Below are positions 1 through 8,709 of a stretch of 8,709 nt of DNA, one piece after another. Numbering within the stretch: position 1 is the first letter of the stretch; the number at the start of each line of letters is the position of its first letter. Origin of the DNA: Takakia lepidozioides (taxonomy: Eukaryota; Plantae; Bryophyta). Below the pieces are notes generated by a model. That model saw nothing but the letters and a program-made list of their open reading frames with translations, did no database searches and was not told the origin of the DNA. The stretch covers positions 1-8,709 of the forward strand of contig JAKLZA010000193.1 of assembly GCA_030704615.1 (NCBI GenBank), in the 5' to 3' direction. The position numbers were made by a program, and so were the translations under genes.

Positions 1-70
1 GTTGCTCTGCCGCCCACAGAGCAATTTGAGGATTGTGACGGCTTGGGAGGGGCACTTTTTTTGTTCTTGC

Positions 71-530
71 TGTGACAGGCCGTTGCCCATGGCCTTGGGG
101 CTGGTGCGGGCTGTGAGGGGCTGTGACAGGCAGTGCGTGAGGCCTTTGGGGCTGTGACGGGCTGTGAGGGTTGTGACAGGCTGTGCCCATGGCCTTGGGG
201 CTGTGAGGGCTGTGAGGGGCTGTGACAGGCGTGCTGAGGCCTTTGGGGTGGCTGTGACGGGCTGTGCTGTGAGGGGCTGTGACAGGACGTGCCTGAGGCC
301 TTTGAGGCTTGTGACGGGCTGTGAGGGGCTGTGATGACAGGCCGTGCCCATGGCCTTTGGGCTGTGACGGGTGTGAGGGGCTGTGTGTGACAGGCAGCGC
401 CTGAGGCCGTTGGGGCTTCTGTGAAGGGCTTTGTTTTTGTGAGGGGCTTGTGACAGGCATTGTGCCTGAGGCCTTTGAGGCTGTGACAAGCTTTGGAGGG
501 CCTGTGACAGGCTGTGCCCAGTGGCCTGTG
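71..530. repeat. Degenerate ~50-bp tandem array (about 9 units) built from 10-bp subunits
   Basis: (TG)TGACAGG recurs at 71, 122, 172, 221, 278, ~335, 386, 449 and 503. Consensus is approximately CTGTGACAGG CTGTGCC(CAT/TGA) GGCCTTTGGG GCTGTGACGG GCTGTGAGGG. Confidence 0.93.
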
Positions 531-573
531 GACTGTGGACGTTGTTGTGAACTCAGTGAGCTGTGTGGGACTT

Positions 574-633
574 GTGCTGGTCTGTGGTGGCCCGTGTTGA
601 CTGTGGATGGCCTGTGCTGACTCGTGGAGGACA
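574..633. repeat. Three degenerate 20-bp tandem units
   Basis: GTGCTGGTCTGTGGTGGCCC (574), GTGTTGACTGTGGATGGCCT (594), GTGCTGACTCGTGGAGGACA (614). Confidence 0.65.
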
Positions 634-1017
634 TGGGGGACTAAGGACTGGCATGTGGTCTGGAGGCCGAACATTTTGAGCTCGTGGAGGGCGGTTTTGT
701 TTTGAGGAGATCTCATGATATTCCCATGGTCATGCAAGTCAGGTGTAGGCTATGTTAGGAACTTAGTATTCCAAACCATAAGCCGCAACAGGTTCTCTAC
801 CCGGTTACCTTGTGGAGAGGGGGTTAGGGACATGTTCATGACCGGTTGAGTGTCAACACGGAGGTGCCACTAGTTGCTGGGGACAGTGCCGGTTCGAGCA
901 CTAGCGATACTAGTGGGTACACGAGACGAGGTGTGCGGTTTAGGCCACTTCACCTCCTGTGTCTTCCACGGAAGGTTCTGATTCGGATTGTGAATCAGGA
1001 GGAGGGCTCATACGGCG

Positions 1018-2140
1018 GTGCAAGTTGTTTCTTTGCCATTGTTGTGGGACACAATGGAGGAGATGTATGGAGCTACCAAGGGGCCACGGGCAACCATTGA
1101 GTTGGATGATTTTATCCAAGAGTTTGATAGTTGGTGTGATTTGCAGCAAATGCGCAATCCACAACTATTTACGCCGTTCATGGCATGGAAAGGGCTGTTT
1201 CAGCACCTTGAGGGCCGCCTATGGATGATTACCATGAGTTCAGGCGGGGGCATGAGGTTGAGATCGAGGAGTGGAGGATGTACTGGTCACCCGACTATGT
1301 CTCCATCACTAGGGGCACTAGAGCCACGAGGGCAGTGGCTACACCTGCCGCTGCACCGGCAGCTTCAGCAAGCAGCAGTGGGACTGGTGGTACAGTAGCT
1401 ACGACGTCCACCCAAGCCACTACCGCACCAGCACTAGCACCCGTGCCTGCCTTCAACCCTGTTGTGGAGTTCTTCGAAGAGTTGAGAGGGAACTACCAAG
1501 GGGTGAGGACAGAGAAGTTGCGGAGCTTGCAAGAGTTCCAACGGAAGCCGACCGAGAGCTTGAGGGAGGCTTTCACTCGCATGAGGCGCTTGATAAATGT
1601 AACCCAAGGGGTTACGGAAGCTCAGGCAGTCCAATTCTGGTATGGGATATTGGACAAGGAGCTGAGGAGAAGGGTGCGGGATGCAACTCTCCTACAAGCG
1701 GCCCAACCCACCTTAGCAAATGTGTTTTTGCTGGCAGAGCGGATAGAGCTCAACATGGTGGAGGAACGAGTGGTCATGGTGGGATTTGCTAAGGAGACAC
1801 CACGGGGTAGTGGTGCTCCTAGCCAACCACTACCTCAACGTGCTCAAGGCAACAAGGGGGCTCAGGTGAAGCTCAGGGAAGGGCAGAGAGGACCTCAGAT
1901 GCAGGGGTCTCTCCCTTCATTTGCTGGCCAACAACGGGCGGATGTGGTGTGCTGGACATGTGGAGGACCCCATGTCAAGAAGGATTGCCCAGAGGGAGGC
2001 AAAGGGTCGGCACATGCACAGCCTGCACAGTTGCAGTGTGGGCATTGTGGCAAGCACGGGCATGGAGAGGCCCAGTGTTATGGTTTGCATCCTGAGTTGC
2101 GCCCAGGCCAGTTCCAAGGGAACAATGGTGGCCGGGGCGA
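1018..2140 (+). CDS. gag: Gag (capsid + nucleocapsid), reconstructed across a frameshift at ~1215; true start probably further upstream
   Basis: ORF 1018..1398 (LDDFIQEFDSWCD...LFQHLEG) joins ORF 1221..2261 (MDDYHEF...) by one added base. Major-homology-like LQEFQRKPTESLREAFTRMRRL lies at ~1527-1592, and two CCHC knuckles follow. Confidence 0.88.
1950..2078 (+). other. Two nucleocapsid zinc knuckles
   Basis: CWTCGGPHVKKDC (CX2CX3HX4C, 1950-1988) and CGHCGKHGHGEAQC (CX2CX4HX4C, 2037-2078), followed by an RGG-rich stretch after the ~2138 frameshift. Confidence 0.92.
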
Positions 2141-2179
2141 GGTGGAGCAGCCCAGAGAGGACGAGGTGGCCAGCCACGA

Positions 2180-4987
2180 GTGCAGGCCAAGGGCAAGCTC
2201 AACGTGGCCAAGGACGCGGAGGGTGTTGACCAAGGCATGGCCAACCGGCTTCAGCAGCTAGAGCAGAGGCTCGCTGCCATGGCTACAGCTCAGGTGGTAC
2301 CGGCTCTAAGGCCGGATGGTCCACCTCCTGCTCCTGAGGGAGGAGATATGGGAGGCATGGGATTCATGTGTGGAGCAGCACTACCACTAGTGCAGGTGGA
2401 GTCTGCTGCAGCCGTGACTCGAGGAGCAGCACGAGTTCCTGAGCCACGAGGTGCAGAGGTGGAGTTGGATCCACAGCGTGGGGAGGCAAGCCGTCAGGCT
2501 AGGCTTCCTCAGTCATTCACATTGGCGGAGACAGTGTCGACGCCATCCATGGCACCTAGTTCTCGCCCGACTGTTACCGAGGCGGAGGTTACTATGCCAT
2601 TGGGGAGAGCTACACGGGCAGCACCACTACCTAGTGTTGCCAAGGCTACGGCAGCTAGTGTGCTGCTAGGAGCGGCCACATCTGTGTGCCAGGCTCCATT
2701 GTTCTCGGCTACCATGATTGCGACGCCGGGGATAAGACCAGCTGAGGTGTTCAGGCTGGCAGCTACACTCTGTGAGAGTGGGGAGGTTACTTCATCTTCT
2801 GCGGAGATAGTGGGAGGTGTAGTGCCGGAGGGATCCTCGGATTTGAGGGTCAAGACTGCCACGGCGGCGCCATGGCAAGCTGCAGCTGCCAGGTTGATGG
2901 AGCTGCCAGCTAGGCCAGCCATTGAGCGCGCCATGGTGACACCTGGAGTTGTCATGTTAGACAACCAGGATGGCATTTTCTGTTTGAGTGGACCGGCAGG
3001 CAAGAGGTACCGGCCACTGCGAGTCTTGTTGGACTCGGGAGCTCAGCCACTGATGCTGGGCAGAGCTGCTATTGCAGGCTTGGGCCTCACGGAGGCGGAT
3101 ATGGAGCCTTGTCCTTTCCAGATACAGACGTCTCTGGGAGGATCGGAGCAGGCTCGGGGCATGACACGGCATGAGTTGGCTATCAGACTACGGCCGGATC
3201 ACCCTACAGATGGCTCAGTGATGCGAGCCAAGGCCATTGTGACAGACGCAGTCTCATACGATGTCCTGGTTGGTGGGGCAGTGTTGTACCCCATGGGCTT
3301 CACCCTGGATTTTTGGGAGGAGTCAGCTTCCTATAGGCCTGCATGGCAGTCAGGGGAGGGCCGGCGTGTGCAGCTCCCTGTGACGTTCATAGGAGGAGTT
3401 GCGGTTGCCCAGCGAGGCAAGATGCCGACACTAGCAGCATTCACAGCGGCAGTGAGTTGGCCTAGAGAGTTGCTTGAGGGCAATGCTCATTCAGAGGATG
3501 TACCACCTCCGGGAGAGCAGGATGACATGTATGGTATGGCGGAGTTGCCTACCATGGTTGCTCAGACTCCATTGTGGGGCACGAGCAAGGATTTGCAGCG
3601 GGATGCTGATCGACGGGTGCAACAAGCCTGGGTGGAGGCTTTTGTACCGTCAGGAGAGGAGGAGAGTGTGGGGATTGCACCAGGACCACCTCAATTGTCT
3701 CCATTGGACACCACACCTATTGTGTGGCAGTCTCCGGATGAAGGCATTTGTCTTCTGGACTTGTTTGGCGGGATCAGCACCGGATTGGCTGCTGTGTTAC
3801 AGGCAGGTGTACGAGTTCGGCGTTACCTGTATGTGGAGAGGGATGAGACTGCACGACGCGTTTCACTTCGCCATGTTGCTCAGTTGGTGCAGCGGTACCC
3901 TGAGTTGTTGTCGGTGTCTGCAATTCGTGGATATCAGCAGGCCTTGCCAGCAGACATTTCGTTGCTGGGGGCGCAGGATTTGGAGCGGGTTGGCTCCATT
4001 GATCTGGTAGTGGCAGGTTGGCCCTGCCAAGGGCATTCATCAGCCGGGCATGGCAATGGATTGCGAGACTCGAGGTCGGGTCTGTTTTGGGAGATGGTGC
4101 GGGTTTTGCGCCACTTGCAGCTTCATCAAGCTGTATCTCCAGCATACATCTTGGAGAATGTGCCACTGATGGGCGGGGCCAGGGTGATGGCCAGTGTGCA
4201 TCAAGTCCGGTCGTGGCTTGGGTCAGCAGTGTTGCTAGATGCAGCTACAGTGGGGTCACGGGCTCATCGTCCACGGCTATGGTGGACTAACATGATGCCA
4301 CCCGCACTGCTCAAGCGTGCATTTGATGGGGTGCAGCGGCCAGCACATCTCACAGTGGATAACATTCTGGACACAGGGAGGCAGTCTCAACGTGTGAGAC
4401 ACGATGACCGTTCGCCTTTGGCAGTGGTCAACAAGGTGGGTCAACCACGAGCAGCATTACCTACACTGCTCAGCTTCCCAGGATCGCATGCTTTCCGGGA
4501 TAGTGGACCTGGCCTCCTGTGGGATGCTCAGTTGCAGCAGTTAGTGGAGCCTAATGCTGACGAGCGTGAGCGGGCAATGGGTTTTACCACTGGTACCACG
4601 GCGGTGTCGTCTCTTTCTGAGGCATCACGTCGTCAAGTGTTGGGGCAAGCAATGGATCTCAATTGCTTGACCTGGATTATCAGCTTGGCTCTAGCTGAGC
4701 AACGCAGAGTGCGGAATACACTTCCCTCAATGGTCTCTCTGCCTACCGAGACGGTACAGGCAGTGAGTGGGGGCGAGCATATGAGGACCACGGGGTGCAT
4801 GCATCCATGGCACACGTGGGAGGTGCTCGAGGTTCAGAGGGAGTTGGCAGCCAAGGCGGCTGTGATGGATGAGGTTGGGGATTCTTCTCGGGTTGAGGAG
4901 GTCCTCAAGGATGAGATGATGGGGCAGGATGAGGCCTTGTCATTGACTGAGCAGGTAGGAAGTACTGCTCAAGAGGTTGCAGCATAG
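2180..4987 (+). CDS. Polyprotein segment: linker + aspartic protease + C5 DNA methyltransferase (probably continuous with Gag)
   Basis: Uninterrupted 935-aa ORF containing LLDSGA and the C5-MTase motifs. Adding one base at ~2138 fuses it to Gag as ...GGRGRGGAAQRGRGGQPRVQAKGK. Confidence 0.92.
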   Translation: MQAKGKLNVAKDAEGVDQGMANRLQQLEQRLAAMATAQVVPALRPDGPPPAPEGGDMGGMGFMCGAALPLVQVESAAAVTRGAARVPEPRGAEVELDPQRGEASRQARLPQSFTLAETVSTPSMAPSSRPTVTEAEVTMPLGRATRAAPLPSVAKATAASVLLGAATSVCQAPLFSATMIATPGIRPAEVFRLAATLCESGEVTSSSAEIVGGVVPEGSSDLRVKTATAAPWQAAAARLMELPARPAIERAMVTPGVVMLDNQDGIFCLSGPAGKRYRPLRVLLDSGAQPLMLGRAAIAGLGLTEADMEPCPFQIQTSLGGSEQARGMTRHELAIRLRPDHPTDGSVMRAKAIVTDAVSYDVLVGGAVLYPMGFTLDFWEESASYRPAWQSGEGRRVQLPVTFIGGVAVAQRGKMPTLAAFTAAVSWPRELLEGNAHSEDVPPPGEQDDMYGMAELPTMVAQTPLWGTSKDLQRDADRRVQQAWVEAFVPSGEEESVGIAPGPPQLSPLDTTPIVWQSPDEGICLLDLFGGISTGLAAVLQAGVRVRRYLYVERDETARRVSLRHVAQLVQRYPELLSVSAIRGYQQALPADISLLGAQDLERVGSIDLVVAGWPCQGHSSAGHGNGLRDSRSGLFWEMVRVLRHLQLHQAVSPAYILENVPLMGGARVMASVHQVRSWLGSAVLLDAATVGSRAHRPRLWWTNMMPPALLKRAFDGVQRPAHLTVDNILDTGRQSQRVRHDDRSPLAVVNKVGQPRAALPTLLSFPGSHAFRDSGPGLLWDAQLQQLVEPNADERERAMGFTTGTTAVSSLSEASRRQVLGQAMDLNCLTWIISLALAEQRRVRNTLPSMVSLPTETVQAVSGGEHMRTTGCMHPWHTWEVLEVQRELAAKAAVMDEVGDSSRVEEVLKDEMMGQDEALSLTEQVGSTAQEVAA
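2950..3340 (+). other. Retropepsin-type aspartic protease domain
   Basis: VLLDSGA with the catalytic Asp codon at 3032-3034, flap-like IQTSLGG, and C-terminal YDVLVG...LYPMGFTLDF (~3257-3313). Confidence 0.88.
3746..4690 (+). other. C5 cytosine DNA methyltransferase catalytic domain, DNMT3-like
   Basis: Motif I LLDLFGGISTG (3752-), II YVERD (3830-), III DI (3953-), IV DLVVAGWPCQ (catalytic Cys 4025-4027), VI ILENV (4148-4162), VIII AHRPRLWWTN (4262-4291), IX ERERAMGF (4562-4585) and X RRQVLGQAM (4628-4654), in non-permuted order. Confidence 0.96.
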
Positions 4988-4993
4988 CAACCA
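4985..4993 (+). promoter_or_regulatory. Candidate leaky stop codon (UAG-CAR-YYA readthrough signal)
   Basis: TAG CAA CCA. The frame stays open from 4988 into the RT ORF at 5147 (5147-2180 is divisible by 3, and no stop was found when reading codon by codon). Confidence 0.6.
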
Positions 4994-6119
4994 CGGGACG
5001 CGTCCTCTACCTCTAAGCCCACTGGACTTAAGGTTGTAGTTACGGAGGACAATTGGGAGCCTGACATTGGACCCATTGTCACCGGAGGAGAGAGACGACG
5101 TATACGGCGGTTCCTGAGGGCTTACAGGAATTGCTTTGCCTTCAGTTTGAAAGACTTGGGAGCACTGAAGGGTCAAGAGATCCGTATTGAGTTGGCCACT
5201 GACACGCCAATCTTTCGGAGACCCTATAGATACAGTGACATGGAGAGGTCTTTGATTCAGATGAGGACTCAAGATCTCTGGGAGGCAGGTTTGGTGGAGC
5301 TCTCTGGTGGAGAGTATGCTTCAGCCACAGTGATGCCAGCCAAGAAGGATGTCTATGGCAATTGGACGGAGAGACGTATGTGCGGTGATTACCGGCCTGT
5401 AAATCGTCAGACCAAGTCCGATAAGTATGCCATGCCAACACCAGAGGAGATCTTTGATGCCATCGGGCATGCTAAGGCCTTTAGCACTTTGGATTTACGA
5501 TCCGGATATCACCAGTTGCCAATCAAGGAGGCGGACAAGCAGAAGACGGCATTCTGGGGGATCAATGAGCACGGCAAGGATTGCCTATATCAGTGGCGGT
5601 TCTTACCATTTGGGCTTAAGAATGCTCCTGCAGAGTTTCAGAGAGTCATGGATAGGATTCTAGCAGGGTGGACTTTGCTCGGTGCTACATAGATGACATC
5701 ATCATCTTTAGTGTTACGATGGAGGAGCATGAGAGACACCTTCAGGTGGTATTGGAGCGCTTGAGAGCGCACGGATTGAAGTTGCATCCGGGGAAGTGCA
5801 AGTTTTTCCACAACCAGATTGAGTATCTGGGTCACATGATATATCCTGGAGGATTGGGGGTACAGCAGACTAAGGTAGAGGCCATTGCACAAATTCCACG
5901 CCCCACGGATGTGAGCCGAGTTCGAGCTTTCATGGGGTTGGCAAACTATTATAGACGGTTTGTCAAAGGATTTAGTACCATTGCAAAGGCTCTAACCAAG
6001 CTGACCAAGGTGGACCAGGAGTGGCAGTGGGAAGATGAGCAGGAACGAGCTTTTCAAGAGCTCAAGGCGAGGTTGACCTCGGCGCCTATCTTGAGACGAC
6101 CAATCAGGGGGCGTCCTTT
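4988..6119 (+). CDS. pol: Reverse transcriptase and connection region (frameshift at ~5667)
   Basis: PIFRRPYR, RMCGDYRPVN, FSTLDLRSGYHQ, KTAF, LPFGLKNAPAEFQR, then YIDD (5686-5697), KCKF, YLGH and FMGLANYYRRFV in ORF 5668..6198. Confidence 0.96.
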
Positions 6120-6475
6120 CAGCTGCATACGGATTGGAGCATGCTGGGGCTTGGAGCGGTGCTCACACAGGTGGATGATGAGGGAAGAGAGTTCGTAGTG
6201 GCTTACGCTAGCCGCTCGAACAACGCTGCAGAGGCTAAGTACAGCTCATATGAGGGAGAGTGCTTAGCTGCAGTGTGGGCCGTGGCACACTTCAGGTGCT
6301 ATCTATACGGCAATCTTTTCACCCTTGTCACGATCACCAGCCACTCAAGTGGTTGATGGAGTCAGACAAGCTTACGGGGAAGCTTGCACGGTGGGCACTT
6401 ATACTCCAGGAGTATGACTTTCAGGTTGTGCATCGACCGGGTTTGGTCAATCGGGATGCGGATGGATTGAGTCGC
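6120..6475 (+). CDS. pol: RNase H domain (frameshifts at ~6120 and ~6332)
   Basis: Reconstructed FQLHTDWS (Asp 6132-6134), GLGAVL, VAYASR, YSSYEGECLAAVWAV, TDHQPL, ARWALILQEYDF, ADGLSR (6458-6475). Confidence 0.93.
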
Positions 6476-6871
6476 AATCCATGCATGAGCCAGCAGGATG
6501 ACACTGGAGCTCGGTGGCATGGTGAGACGGACGAGGAGATGGTGCCGGGATGGCACGCATCTGCATTTTTGTGTATCTTGGCATCGGGAGGTCAGATTGG
6601 ACCTACAACAGGGATGACTGTAGACGGAGTGTCTGAGGACCCTGAGGCTAGTGATGAGCTAGGTGGTGCCAGAGATATACATGAGGATTCGGCTGTGTTG
6701 GACTACCTCCGCACGGGAGACACGGCAGCCATTGTGACTGCCAGGGAGAGGGATCGGATCCTGCAACGAGCCAAGAGGTTCAAGTGGGAGGGGATACACC
6801 TACTTCGAGTGTGGGAGGATGGTCGGGTGAGGATTGTGCCTCACCCCACACAGCGTGCACGGTTAGTGCGG

Positions 6872-7915
6872 CATGCCCATGAGGAGTTGGGGCATTTTGG
6901 AGTGCGACGCACTCACAGTTTACTGCAGGGGCAGTATTGGTGGCGTGGTATGCATACAGAGGTGCAACAGTTTGTGGCTAGGTGCATGGTGTGTGACAGG
7001 GTGCGTGCTTCATTCAACGCCCCTACACCACAGTTGCATCCTTTACCTATCATGGGATTGGGCTACAGGTGGAGTCTTGACTTCGCAGGACCGTTGCCAC
7101 TGACTATGCGCCACCACAGATATGTGTTGGTGATGGTGGAGCACTTCTCCAAGTGGATTGAGTTGGTTCCATTGCCTGACAAGGCTAGTGAGGGGGCTGC
7201 GTATGCATTCTTGGATCGTGTGCTTAGCCGATTTGGTGCTCCAGCTGAGGTACTCACGGACCAAGGGAGAGAGTTCTTGGGGGAGTTTCAGGCTTTGTGT
7301 GATAAAGCCTTGATAGACCACCGCACCACTTCTCGGGATCATCCTGAGGCCGATGGCTTAGCAGAGAGAGTTGTTCAGACGGTGAAGAGGGGTTTGCGCA
7401 AGTATGGCTTACAGAAGGGACACCTAGGAGATTGGGATCTTCAGGTTCCTTGGTTAGCCATGGGCTACAGGTTCAGCAAACAAGCATCACTTGCCTCCTT
7501 CTCACCATATTTCCTTCTCTTTGGCCGAGAGCCGGATTTGCCTGCAGCCATTCGTAGGGACACTGCTCAAGTCCTTAACCTTGACGATCCGGACATGTGG
7601 GTACGTGCATGTGATCAGCGTGCAGAGTTGTTCAAGAAAGTCATGCCCATGGCTTTTGAGAACCTTGCCATTGCACAGCACCGTGATACGTTGAGGTATG
7701 CCACTATACGTGGTGGAGGATATCGTCCTGGGGTTCGGAGGTTTAGCCCTGGTGACTATGTTTATTTGCAGCAGACTGCTCCTACGACTCTGGATGTTAC
7801 TGCAGGGCGTGTTATTCTGAGGGTTCGAGAGGTGTTGCCCTCAGGGGTCCTGATCTTAGAGGGTCGGGATGGCATGACTTGGAAAGACCATGTGCGTAAT
7901 TGTGCGCCATGTCAC
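6872..7915 (+). CDS. pol: Integrase (HHCC zinc finger, DDE core, SH3-like C-terminal region)
   Basis: HEELGH...CMVC (6878-6994), WSLDFAGP (Asp 7079), LTDQG (Asp 7259), GLAERV (Glu 7364) and SPYFLLFGREP, all within ORF 6260..7972. Confidence 0.96.
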
Positions 7916-7974
7916 CTTCCCAATGTCGATGGCAGAGTTGACCCAAACTTGGCAGTGGTACTGCAGGTTTGAGG

Positions 7975-8118
7975 TGCATGCTCTGTGGGTCTGCCAAAGG
8001 GGCAGCCACCATGCTGGTGTGTGATCGGTGCTCAAGGGGTTGGCATATGGGATGCTTGACACCACCCCTTGAGAAGGTTCCTGACGGAGATTGGTTGTGT
8101 CCACACTACTTGGGATAG
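7975..8118 (+). CDS. PHD finger at the polyprotein C-terminus (reached via a frameshift at ~7961; absent from the ORF track)
   Basis: Manual translation: CMLCGSAKGAATMLVCDRCSRGWHMGCLTPPLEKVPDGDWLCPHYLG*. This is a C4HC3 pattern with the typical PPLxxVPxGDWxC segment; the last Cys reads TAC (Tyr). Confidence 0.92.
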   Translation, partial: CMLCGSAKGAATMLVCDRCSRGWHMGCLTPPLEKVPDGDWLCPHYLG

Positions 8119-8367
8119 TGGCAGTGGACATGACTGGAGGCAGCTAACAAGACATGGGAGGCCAAGCTCATAGGAGTCAATACATGAGATCCCAAGCTCA
8201 AGTTCACAGGTTGCAAGACGGCAACTAACGATGGGGCAACTCTTGCACCCGGCCTCTTGATCTATCGAGTTTGAGTGTAGTAGGGATAGTGGTGGAGGAC
8301 TTGGTGAGGCTATGGTCACTATCACATCTTGTGGCTACCTGGACTTAGAGGGACCTAAGCACCAGCT

Positions 8368-8377
8368 AGGGGGGCGA
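8368..8377 (+). promoter_or_regulatory. Candidate polypurine tract; possible 3' LTR start at TG 8379
   Basis: AGGGGGGCGA about 250 bp after the pol stop, followed by T-TGTGTGG. It is short and there is no 5' LTR copy to confirm it. Confidence 0.4.
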
Positions 8378-8385
8378 TTGTGTGG

Positions 8386-8496
8386 ACTAGTGACTGCCAT
8401 AGTGGGCAGCGTAGTGGCAGCCTAGTGACTGACTAGTTGTAGCCTAGTGGTTGGCTTAGTGGCTGGACTAGTGGTAGACTAGTGGTATACTAGTGT
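8386..8496. repeat. Ten-unit 11-12-bp tandem array with a (C)TAGT(GG) core
   Basis: TAGT at 8388, 8400, 8412, 8423, 8434, 8445, 8457, 8469, 8480 and 8491. Confidence 0.88.
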
Positions 8497-8571
8497 GTGG
8501 TGTGCACATGTGTTGTGTGGTTTTGGACAGCGATGTAGTTGTGTAGCAATATGTATGCGCACGACAGCATG

Positions 8572-8600
8572 AAAAAAAAAAATTAGGGTGGGAGGGTGGG
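8572..8600 (+). other. A11 tract followed by a G-quadruplex motif
   Basis: A run at 8572-8582, then GGG-T-GGG-A-GGG-T-GGG at 8586-8600. Confidence 0.7.
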
Positions 8601-8709
8601 ATTTCCAAGACAACCATCGCCCTAGATTCAGATGTCATTCATCATTGAAGGAGTCTTGTTTTTCTTATAAAACAATCGGGACAAACACCACCTTTGGTAC
8701 ATACCAGAT

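Follow-up and report, generated by a model that had tools for sequence, protein, structure and literature searches.

A DNMT3-like methyltransferase domain ahead of a conserved, likely leaky stop codon in a Gypsy retrotransposon family of bryophytes

Results

The methyltransferase domain and its reading frame

The window analyzed in this study is a stretch of 8,709 nucleotides from Takakia lepidozioides (assembly GCA_030704615.1, contig JAKLZA010000193.1, positions 1 to 8,709). It holds most of one copy of a Gypsy retrotransposon whose genes, all on the plus strand, follow the order gag, protease, reverse transcriptase (RT), RNase H and integrase, in agreement with the class that an earlier note had read from the letters alone. 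A DNMT3-like C5 cytosine methyltransferase domain is found at 3746–4690. The first open reading frame (ORF1) closes 98 codons past this domain at TAG CAA CCA (4985–4993), an in-frame stop in the readthrough context CARYYA, and RT goes on in the same frame. The earlier note had put the domain between protease and RT, where it indeed lies, and had treated it as joined to RT within Pol, which does not hold given the family-conserved TAG at 4985–4987. Because the methyltransferase is inside the Gag-protease frame and ahead of a conserved stop, it is likely made at Gag level, with Pol made by readthrough.

The ORF at 2096–4987 has 963 open codons and contains the protease motif followed by the methyltransferase in one frame. 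The domain was recognized by Pfam, alignment and a structure model. Its match to PF00145 (DNA_methylase), the profile check that had been proposed, scored 45.4 bits against a cut-off of 22 (E 9.6e-12). The catalytic motifs are FGG (3764–3772), PC (4022–4027, with the catalytic Cys at 4025–4027), ENV (4154–4162) and HRPR (4265–4276), and the C-terminal motifs are ERAMGF (4568–4585) and LGQAM (4640–4654). S-adenosylmethionine motif I, the catalytic PC, ENV and RxR are all there in unpermuted order, and the four parallels to DNMT3A described earlier were all recovered in alignments with PDB entries. By its sequence, the domain is a C5 cytosine methyltransferase (PF00145) with all catalytic motifs, in the protease frame as had been described. 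It was called intact, which is true of the domain and not of the element copy with its six frame breaks. Among aligned relatives, the catalytic Cys was conserved in 344 of 349, the Glu in 374 of 389 and the two Arg in 364 of 391 and 364 of 386.

A single-sequence search against solved structures gave DNMT3A and DNMT3B as top matches (E 2e-11). The family profile scored DNMT3A at 82.8 bits, DRM at 52.2 and HhaI at 34.8. With the same profile, three phage methyltransferases reached 76–77 bits, close to the 83 of DNMT3A, which counts against a firm DNMT3 label. The AlphaFold model of the domain had a predicted local distance difference test score (pLDDT) of 72 and a predicted template modeling score of 0.79, the remaining four models scoring 53–56, and every match listed by Foldseek was a DNMT3A, DNMT3B or DNMT3C. 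Thus, a DNMT3 affinity of the domain is likely from these comparisons, the tree described below having been built without plant host DNMT3 sequences. The phage enzymes that approached the DNMT3A score are those of S-CBS2 (L144:395-1255), CRP-9 (L145:595-1692) and Epa40 (L146:374-1180). They are candidates for a prokaryotic sister group of DNMT3-like enzymes. Phage tblastn matches cover the domain at 24–30% identity.

The stop codon between the methyltransferase and RT

The junction was surveyed in 82 sequences (the window, L001–L080 and L139), of which 57 had both sides of the junction. A stop lay 10–25 codons ahead of RT in 51 of the 57; it was followed by CAR-YY in 45 and by the full CARYYA in 10. 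Many of these rows belong to a single Sphagnum-like family (35 rows, CAA CCC), as copies or as re-assemblies, and the independent evidence comes from about six families, down to 50% identity. As background, CAR-YY followed 11 of 839 premature stops inside domain matches. The second codon after the stop was CCA, CCC, CTA, TTA or TCA, encoding Pro, Leu or Ser. Since these variants differ in the residue, it is the nucleotide pattern that is kept. The TAG was the majority state in four sequencing runs, no difference at 4985–4993 was seen among the rows listed (40 of 80, four runs), and one loose end in run X13 terminates in the same TAG. A decay mutation as the origin of the TAG was rejected on the basis of the family conservation and the majority state in the four runs.

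In the relative L022, ORFs of 1369 and 1047 codons flank a single TAG, the first with protease and DNMT and the second with RT, RNase H, integrase and a plant homeodomain (PHD) finger. L139 has the same two-ORF layout, and L050 has one break in ORF1. The first in-frame ATG past the stop is 85 codons away in the window, 117 in L022, L073 and L139, and 48 in L001. Because all of these ATGs are inside RT, reinitiation cannot yield a whole RT in these five sequences. In addition, 34 database proteins contain Gag, protease and DNMT without RT, and those called from metagenomes end about 75–140 residues past the domain. A divergent group from the same metagenomes (L067, L069, L070, L075, L077 and L079; 36–41% identity) shows the same end motifs and no stop before RT.

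UAG followed by CARYYA is the readthrough signal of tobacco mosaic virus (PMC4132726). Readthrough at CARYYA was 32% in transient leaf assays and 6–10% in stable lines, and the lower leaf-assay figure of 9% belongs to a different motif type (PMC2754532). Similar to the Type I tobamovirus UAG-CARYYA, the junction described here combines the same stop with the same six-letter context to split an abundant from a rare product. Different from the tobamoviruses, the stop in this Gypsy family splits Gag-protease-DNMT from RT, and its readthrough is predicted from sequence. Rice RIRE2 is another candidate for readthrough (PMC2754532; PMC4132726).

A possible long-range RNA stem follows the stop (4994–5104, plus strand), with arms at about 4994–5020 and 5075–5104. 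A stem starting about 12–15 bases past the stop was predicted in all six sequences folded, with z-scores from −0.55 to −3.96, weak for L001 and L019. The arms, which were picked after folding, paired better within than between two family groups. About 6 of 10 sequences passed the synonymous-codon control, and double changes were absent from all 36 pairs among five close sequences. The stem is therefore suggestive in these predictions and is not claimed.

Selection on the domain and state of the window copy

The ratio of nonsynonymous to synonymous substitution rates (dN/dS) was estimated by the Nei-Gojobori method for 11 hand-chosen pairs. For the domain, the comparisons of L022 with L139, L050 and L026 gave 0.072, 0.111 and 0.120, respectively. 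The same comparisons gave 0.074–0.115 for protease and 0.03–0.05 for RT. The window compared with L019 and L004 gave 0.04–0.06 with saturated dS, and the ratio was undefined in three saturated pairs. Judged by these ratios, the domain is under purifying selection, which answers the dN/dS check proposed earlier (0.07–0.12 for L022, L026, L050 and L139). The observed/expected CpG ratio was 0.52 in the window and 0.28–0.78 in relatives; CpG depletion was not used as evidence because host methylation explains it equally.

In the window copy, the reading frames are interrupted at six points, at about 1211, 2179, 5665, 6120, 6331 and 7960. Between them, the sole nonsense codon is the conserved stop at 4985. 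At 5 of the 6 break sites, contigs of other copies showed small indels relative to the window (12 of 57 rows listed). Such a lack of nonsense codons around the breaks is compatible with decay and equally with read errors in the assembly. The Gypsy family of the window is much repeated: in run X1, 89,071 of 2,790,647 contigs mapped to the window and to all of its 30 bins, the domain being covered as its flanks are, where contig depth gives no copy number. Run X7 is a single 2.3-kb piece whose ends resemble a polylinker, and its label was given no weight for the host.

Other parts of the element and its terminal repeats

The left end of the element is outside the window. Positions 1–550 hold degenerate G/T-rich tandem repeats that are likely the 5′ non-coding part of the element and were covered by contigs in 3 of 4 runs. 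Their units of about 10 and about 50 bases, upstream of gag, were also found in other copies. The gag gene (1054–2179) starts with the ATG at 1054 and carries the breaks at about 1211 and 2179. Its Retrotrans_gag match was under the cut-off (E 0.0023), its two zinc-knuckle-like motifs were read off the translation, and tblastn with the Marchantia protein P0123 covered the gag region in three frames. The aspartic protease is at 2945–3394, with the D-S-G motif within 3026–3046; Asp_protease_2 was weak in the window (E 0.045) and stronger in the intact relative L022 (E 2e-4). RT, with YIDD at 5686, and RNase H occupy 5042–6420 (RVT_1, RT_RNaseH and RT_RNaseH_2) and contain the breaks at about 5665, 6120 and 6331. 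The DDE integrase with its H2C2 zinc domain follows at 6845–7960 (Integrase_H2C2, E 4.4e-16; rve, E 1.2e-13), with the break at about 7960.

Pol closes with a PHD finger (7966–8118; PF00628, 45.2 bits) and the stop TAG at 8116. The PHD is fused to integrase in L022. Its best solved relatives are the PHDs of CHD4, PHF12, KDM5B, DPF3, ATXR5, KDM5A and PHF21A, with likeness also to those of BAZ2 and UHRF1.

Standard long terminal repeats (LTRs) were sought in the window and none was found. Two full LTRs are lacking in the relatives as well, which show the arrangement A-coding-B-A-B in their place. In L043 and L066, unit A (about 340 bp) is followed by the coding part, a polypurine tract, unit B (about 114 bp), two letters, A and B. 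These two loci, the only ones in which both ends were examined, have TG...CA ends and 4-bp target duplications each. Their A-coding-B-A-B spans (L043:1676-10805 and L066:4874-14077) combine DIRS-like repeats with the insertion marks of a DDE integrase, and the inner B-A junction resembles two joined ends plus two extra letters. The junction motif was found in 9 of 22 loci with a PHD match. The window has only the polypurine tract and B (8368–8566): the tract, kept in relatives, lies at 8368–8378, and B, ending in ...GACA, lies at 8379–8566, after which relatives continue with A and a second B and the window with other DNA. Loose ends at 8568 in 3 runs and lower depth at 8619 fit this change. 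No standard LTR model explains the A-coding-B-A-B template or how its complementary DNA (cDNA) is primed.

Relatives, host range and phylogeny

Protein searches with the domain, in which the best 7,994 candidates were scored each time, returned 324 proteins of similar length (120 listed) and 82 longer ones. The named matches were from Marchantia polymorpha, M. paleacea, Riccia sorocarpa, Calypogeia fissa and three Sphagnum species, reaching 75% identity over the whole domain. The earlier suggestion that a land-plant host would extend the known range is thus borne out by Marchantia, Riccia, Calypogeia and Sphagnum. The Klebsormidium nitens protein P0184 was 45% identical over 77% of the domain (E 1.4e-51). 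A relative from Hariotina reticulata was found by cluster look-up, and a search with the Pol of an intact relative added Closterium, some sequences with the DNMT domain, and one Coleochaete transcript. No named vascular-plant protein was among the matches listed, which is weak evidence of absence. Moreover, 273 related stretches were identified in metagenomes, and the profile matched 500 clusters with E values no higher than 1e-30.

In the DNMT tree, the window grouped with Calypogeia, Marchantia and Sphagnum in a set of 14 rows (Shimodaira-Hasegawa-like approximate likelihood ratio test support 96). In the RT tree, it was sister to the Calypogeia, Marchantia and Sphagnum rows (97), and the Klebsormidium RT joined the window lineage, outside the remaining Gypsy rows. 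For DNMT, the tree was built by a quick method, and long-branch warnings apply to both trees. Such positions would by themselves make a bryophyte host likely, another land-plant lineage, even a vascular plant, being possible.

Among the 138 newly listed clusters, the commonest full layout was RT-RNase H-DNMT-integrase-PHD, as in Hariotina. DNMT stands between RNase H and integrase in P0157, P0158, P0162, P0168–P0170, P0265 and P0268 as well as in 37 of the 138 representatives. Given that this group, including the chlorophyte Hariotina, formed its own clade in both trees, the domain moved within the lineage or re-entered it.

Whole elements of the family were also found in cyanobacterial bins, where they are annotated as bacterial: L139 (CADCWO010000201.1), P0021 and P0410. 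They are likely plant DNA in these bins. A prokaryotic origin was rejected, as scans of IMG/VR and GTDB gave only partial matches of 24–50% besides one full element in a cyanobacterial bin.

Discussion

Proposed function of the leaky stop

The element in the window may be read as a frame-broken copy of a Gypsy family in which ORF1, encoding Gag, protease and DNMT, is closed at a likely leaky UAG-CAR-YY(A). Most ribosomes would stop there and make Gag-protease-DNMT at Gag level. From the junction sequences, it is highly probable that a minority of ribosomes pass the stop and make RT-RNase H-integrase-PHD. Given its conserved motifs, the domain probably methylates DNA as an active C5 enzyme, once the protease has freed or trimmed it. 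Many copies of the enzyme would be packaged in the particle, adjoining the cDNA. We lean slightly toward the element's own cDNA as the main substrate, with CG as the most likely site by analogy with the dinoflagellate enzymes; each new copy would then arrive pre-marked. The PHDs of KDM5B, CHD4, PHF21A, BAZ2 and UHRF1 are readers of H3 tails unmethylated at K4. By analogy, it is reasonably likely that the PHD of the element binds such tails and steers insertion off active promoters; PHD-guided insertion into silent chromatin would match a pre-methylated copy. A CHH preference of the domain is possible by analogy with the moss DNMT3b.

As a whole, a leaky conserved stop with a DNMT that is made at Gag level, packaged and probably directed at new cDNA is the best explanation, although in its entirety it could as easily fail as hold. 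The wider picture is more tentative. It would be one of an old green-plant Gypsy lineage on land, in which a tobamovirus-type leaky stop loads a de novo DNMT3-like enzyme into the particle at capsid level, the cDNA is methylated before PHD-guided insertion, the template is A-coding-B-A-B, and the window has its branch outside the copies named from liverworts and Sphagnum.

Several results weigh against this interpretation. The commonest metagenome family has CAA CCC, matching five of the six letters, and an ATG three codons past the stop, where reinitiation is possible; six divergent loci have no stop, and one locus has the stop without the motif. Relatives with other layouts have DNMT fused to RT or placed between RNase H and integrase, so that Gag-level dosage is not needed across the whole lineage. 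The domain dN/dS was 0.16, 0.36 and 1.0 in pairs with decayed copies, as is expected after insertion. Residues 204–260, the target-recognition region, were modeled poorly (pLDDT <50), and the CG specificity is therefore borrowed from relatives. In favor of the interpretation, dinoflagellate retrotransposon DNMT3 domains carried out de novo CG methylation in yeast (PMC5890265). Of the relatives tested, Klebsormidium has the nearest domain, which produced no methylation in yeast (PMC5890265). The Klebsormidium result is inconclusive because DNMT3B failed as well.

Alternative explanations

With the same anatomy and readthrough, the abundant enzyme might instead work outside the particle, in the nucleus, with host chromatin, the insertion site or copies already integrated as its target. 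We consider this unlikely but worth weighing, since an enzyme at Gag level would far exceed the need of two cDNA strands and the integrase PHD points toward contact with chromatin; accidental methylation of the host was also raised by de Mendoza et al. (PMC5890265). The PHD, however, belongs to the readthrough product, separate from the methyltransferase, and in Klebsormidium, a carrier of such elements, the methylome is of the ordinary plant kind (PMC5890265). Alternatively, the domain might have been retained to bind nucleic acid or to help build the particle, or it might act on RNA, with little DNA methylation. Its location at the end of the Gag frame and the inactivity of the Klebsormidium domain in yeast (PMC5890265) would fit such a role, which is improbable in view of the catalytic Cys, Glu and both Arg in 93–99% of aligned relatives and of the activity of related retrotransposon DNMT3 domains on DNA (PMC5890265).

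The remaining alternatives concern the expression of Pol and the status of the domain. Pol could come from a spliced RNA with the TAG as acceptor, or from reinitiation, with DNMT still at Gag level. Ogre elements provide a precedent for Pol from spliced RNA. The TAG could serve as an acceptor, and a stretch rich in T precedes it in the Sphagnum-like family, but splicing has no need for six conserved exon letters that match CARYYA. For reinitiation, an ATG lies 3–5 codons past the stop in the Sphagnum-like family, L026, L028 and L054, whereas the RT core is preceded by no ATG in five sequences whose frames are open or nearly so. Both routes to Pol together seem quite improbable. Finally, it is most improbable that the domain is a neutral passenger, a one-off capture or a product of chimeric assembly. 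In favor of this are the six breaks in the window copy. However, there are hundreds of relatives, among them the 273 metagenome stretches and 500 clusters, the same domain order recurs in independent assemblies, contigs cover the domain like its flanks in 3 runs, and dN/dS is near 0.1. These results speak against the possibilities, raised in the earlier note, that the DNMT occurs in this copy alone or evolves neutrally.

Comparison with known elements

Similar to KnitGypsy-Dnmt3 of Klebsormidium nitens (PMC5890265), the window family has Gypsy domains, an unpermuted Dnmt3-like domain and purifying selection on it. Both also have DIRS-like A-coding-B-A-B repeats, which are complete here in L043 and L066 and come with integrase-type ends. 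Different from KnitGypsy-Dnmt3, whose domain is in the Pol ORF according to the paper, the domain of the window family closes the Gag-protease frame before the stop. Moreover, Pol of the window family ends in a PHD, and its members occur in liverworts and mosses. With its DNMT cut off from RT by a conserved stop, the family is a variant of KnitGypsy-Dnmt3. In de Mendoza et al. (2018; PMC5890265), the Gypsy form was found only in Klebsormidium, and the genome table includes Physcomitrella and Selaginella and neither Marchantia nor Sphagnum. The main text has no "PHD", "Marchantia" or land-plant element, and its figure supplement may show more.

SymbioDIRS-Dnmt3 and SymbioLINE-Dnmt (PMC5890265) are also retrotransposons with a DNA methyltransferase, of other element classes. 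EpiLTRs and DAM-LTRs (bioRxiv 10.64898/2026.05.21.726589) are further retrotransposons with methyltransferases, and EpiLTRs add a chromatin reader; these elements differ by a DNMT4-related domain with Dam and a chromodomain. The accessible parts of PMC5890265 and of the preprint describe no Gag-level enzyme for the SymbioDIRS, SymbioLINE, EpiLTR or DAM-LTR elements. The preprint speaks of "streptophytes (Gypsy-DNMT3)", and PMC12344493 cites the same Gypsy-DNMT3 work. DNMT-carrying elements are unmentioned in PMC6317226 and PMC12885004 under the terms searched. In the literature search, which left most subscription papers outside, no paper was found that deals with the bryophyte members, with the stop or with the PHD. 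The concept of a methyltransferase-carrying retrotransposon is thus already known, and the additions made here are the leaky-stop anatomy, the Gag-level dosage, the PHD and the integrase-type ends. According to an opinion article (PMC6338049), land plants such as tracheophytes lack elements of this kind, a statement that should be confined, at most, to vascular plants.

Host DNMT3 of non-flowering streptophytes also have an unpermuted catalytic domain (Yaari et al., 2019; PMC6453930). They carry a C-terminal DUF3444 (PMC6453930), for which the Pfam scan of the window gave no match. PpDNMT3b acts in heterochromatin on CHH (PMC6453930).

The role of retrotransposon methyltransferases has been open since 2018, with awkward hosts and the lone tested Gypsy enzyme silent in yeast. 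The conserved stop predicts both the dosage of the enzyme (Gag level) and its place (the particle), and would be a natural readthrough signal of a plant retrotransposon. Since the family is annotated in Marchantia polymorpha, a genetic model, the question is testable. The Marchantia models P0123, P0124 and P0126 (Mp4g09160, Mp8g17980 and Mp6g11220) are ORF1 of this Gypsy element. Such gene models inflate the DNMT counts in bryophyte annotations and may be taken for host DNMTs. Other combinations of methyltransferases were also seen: in P0195, a DIRS-like protein, a single frame joins RT to a DNMT3-like domain and a Dam adenine methyltransferase, and P0371 is a Gypsy Pol with Dam (PF05869) and PHD, for which no cytosine methyltransferase is listed.

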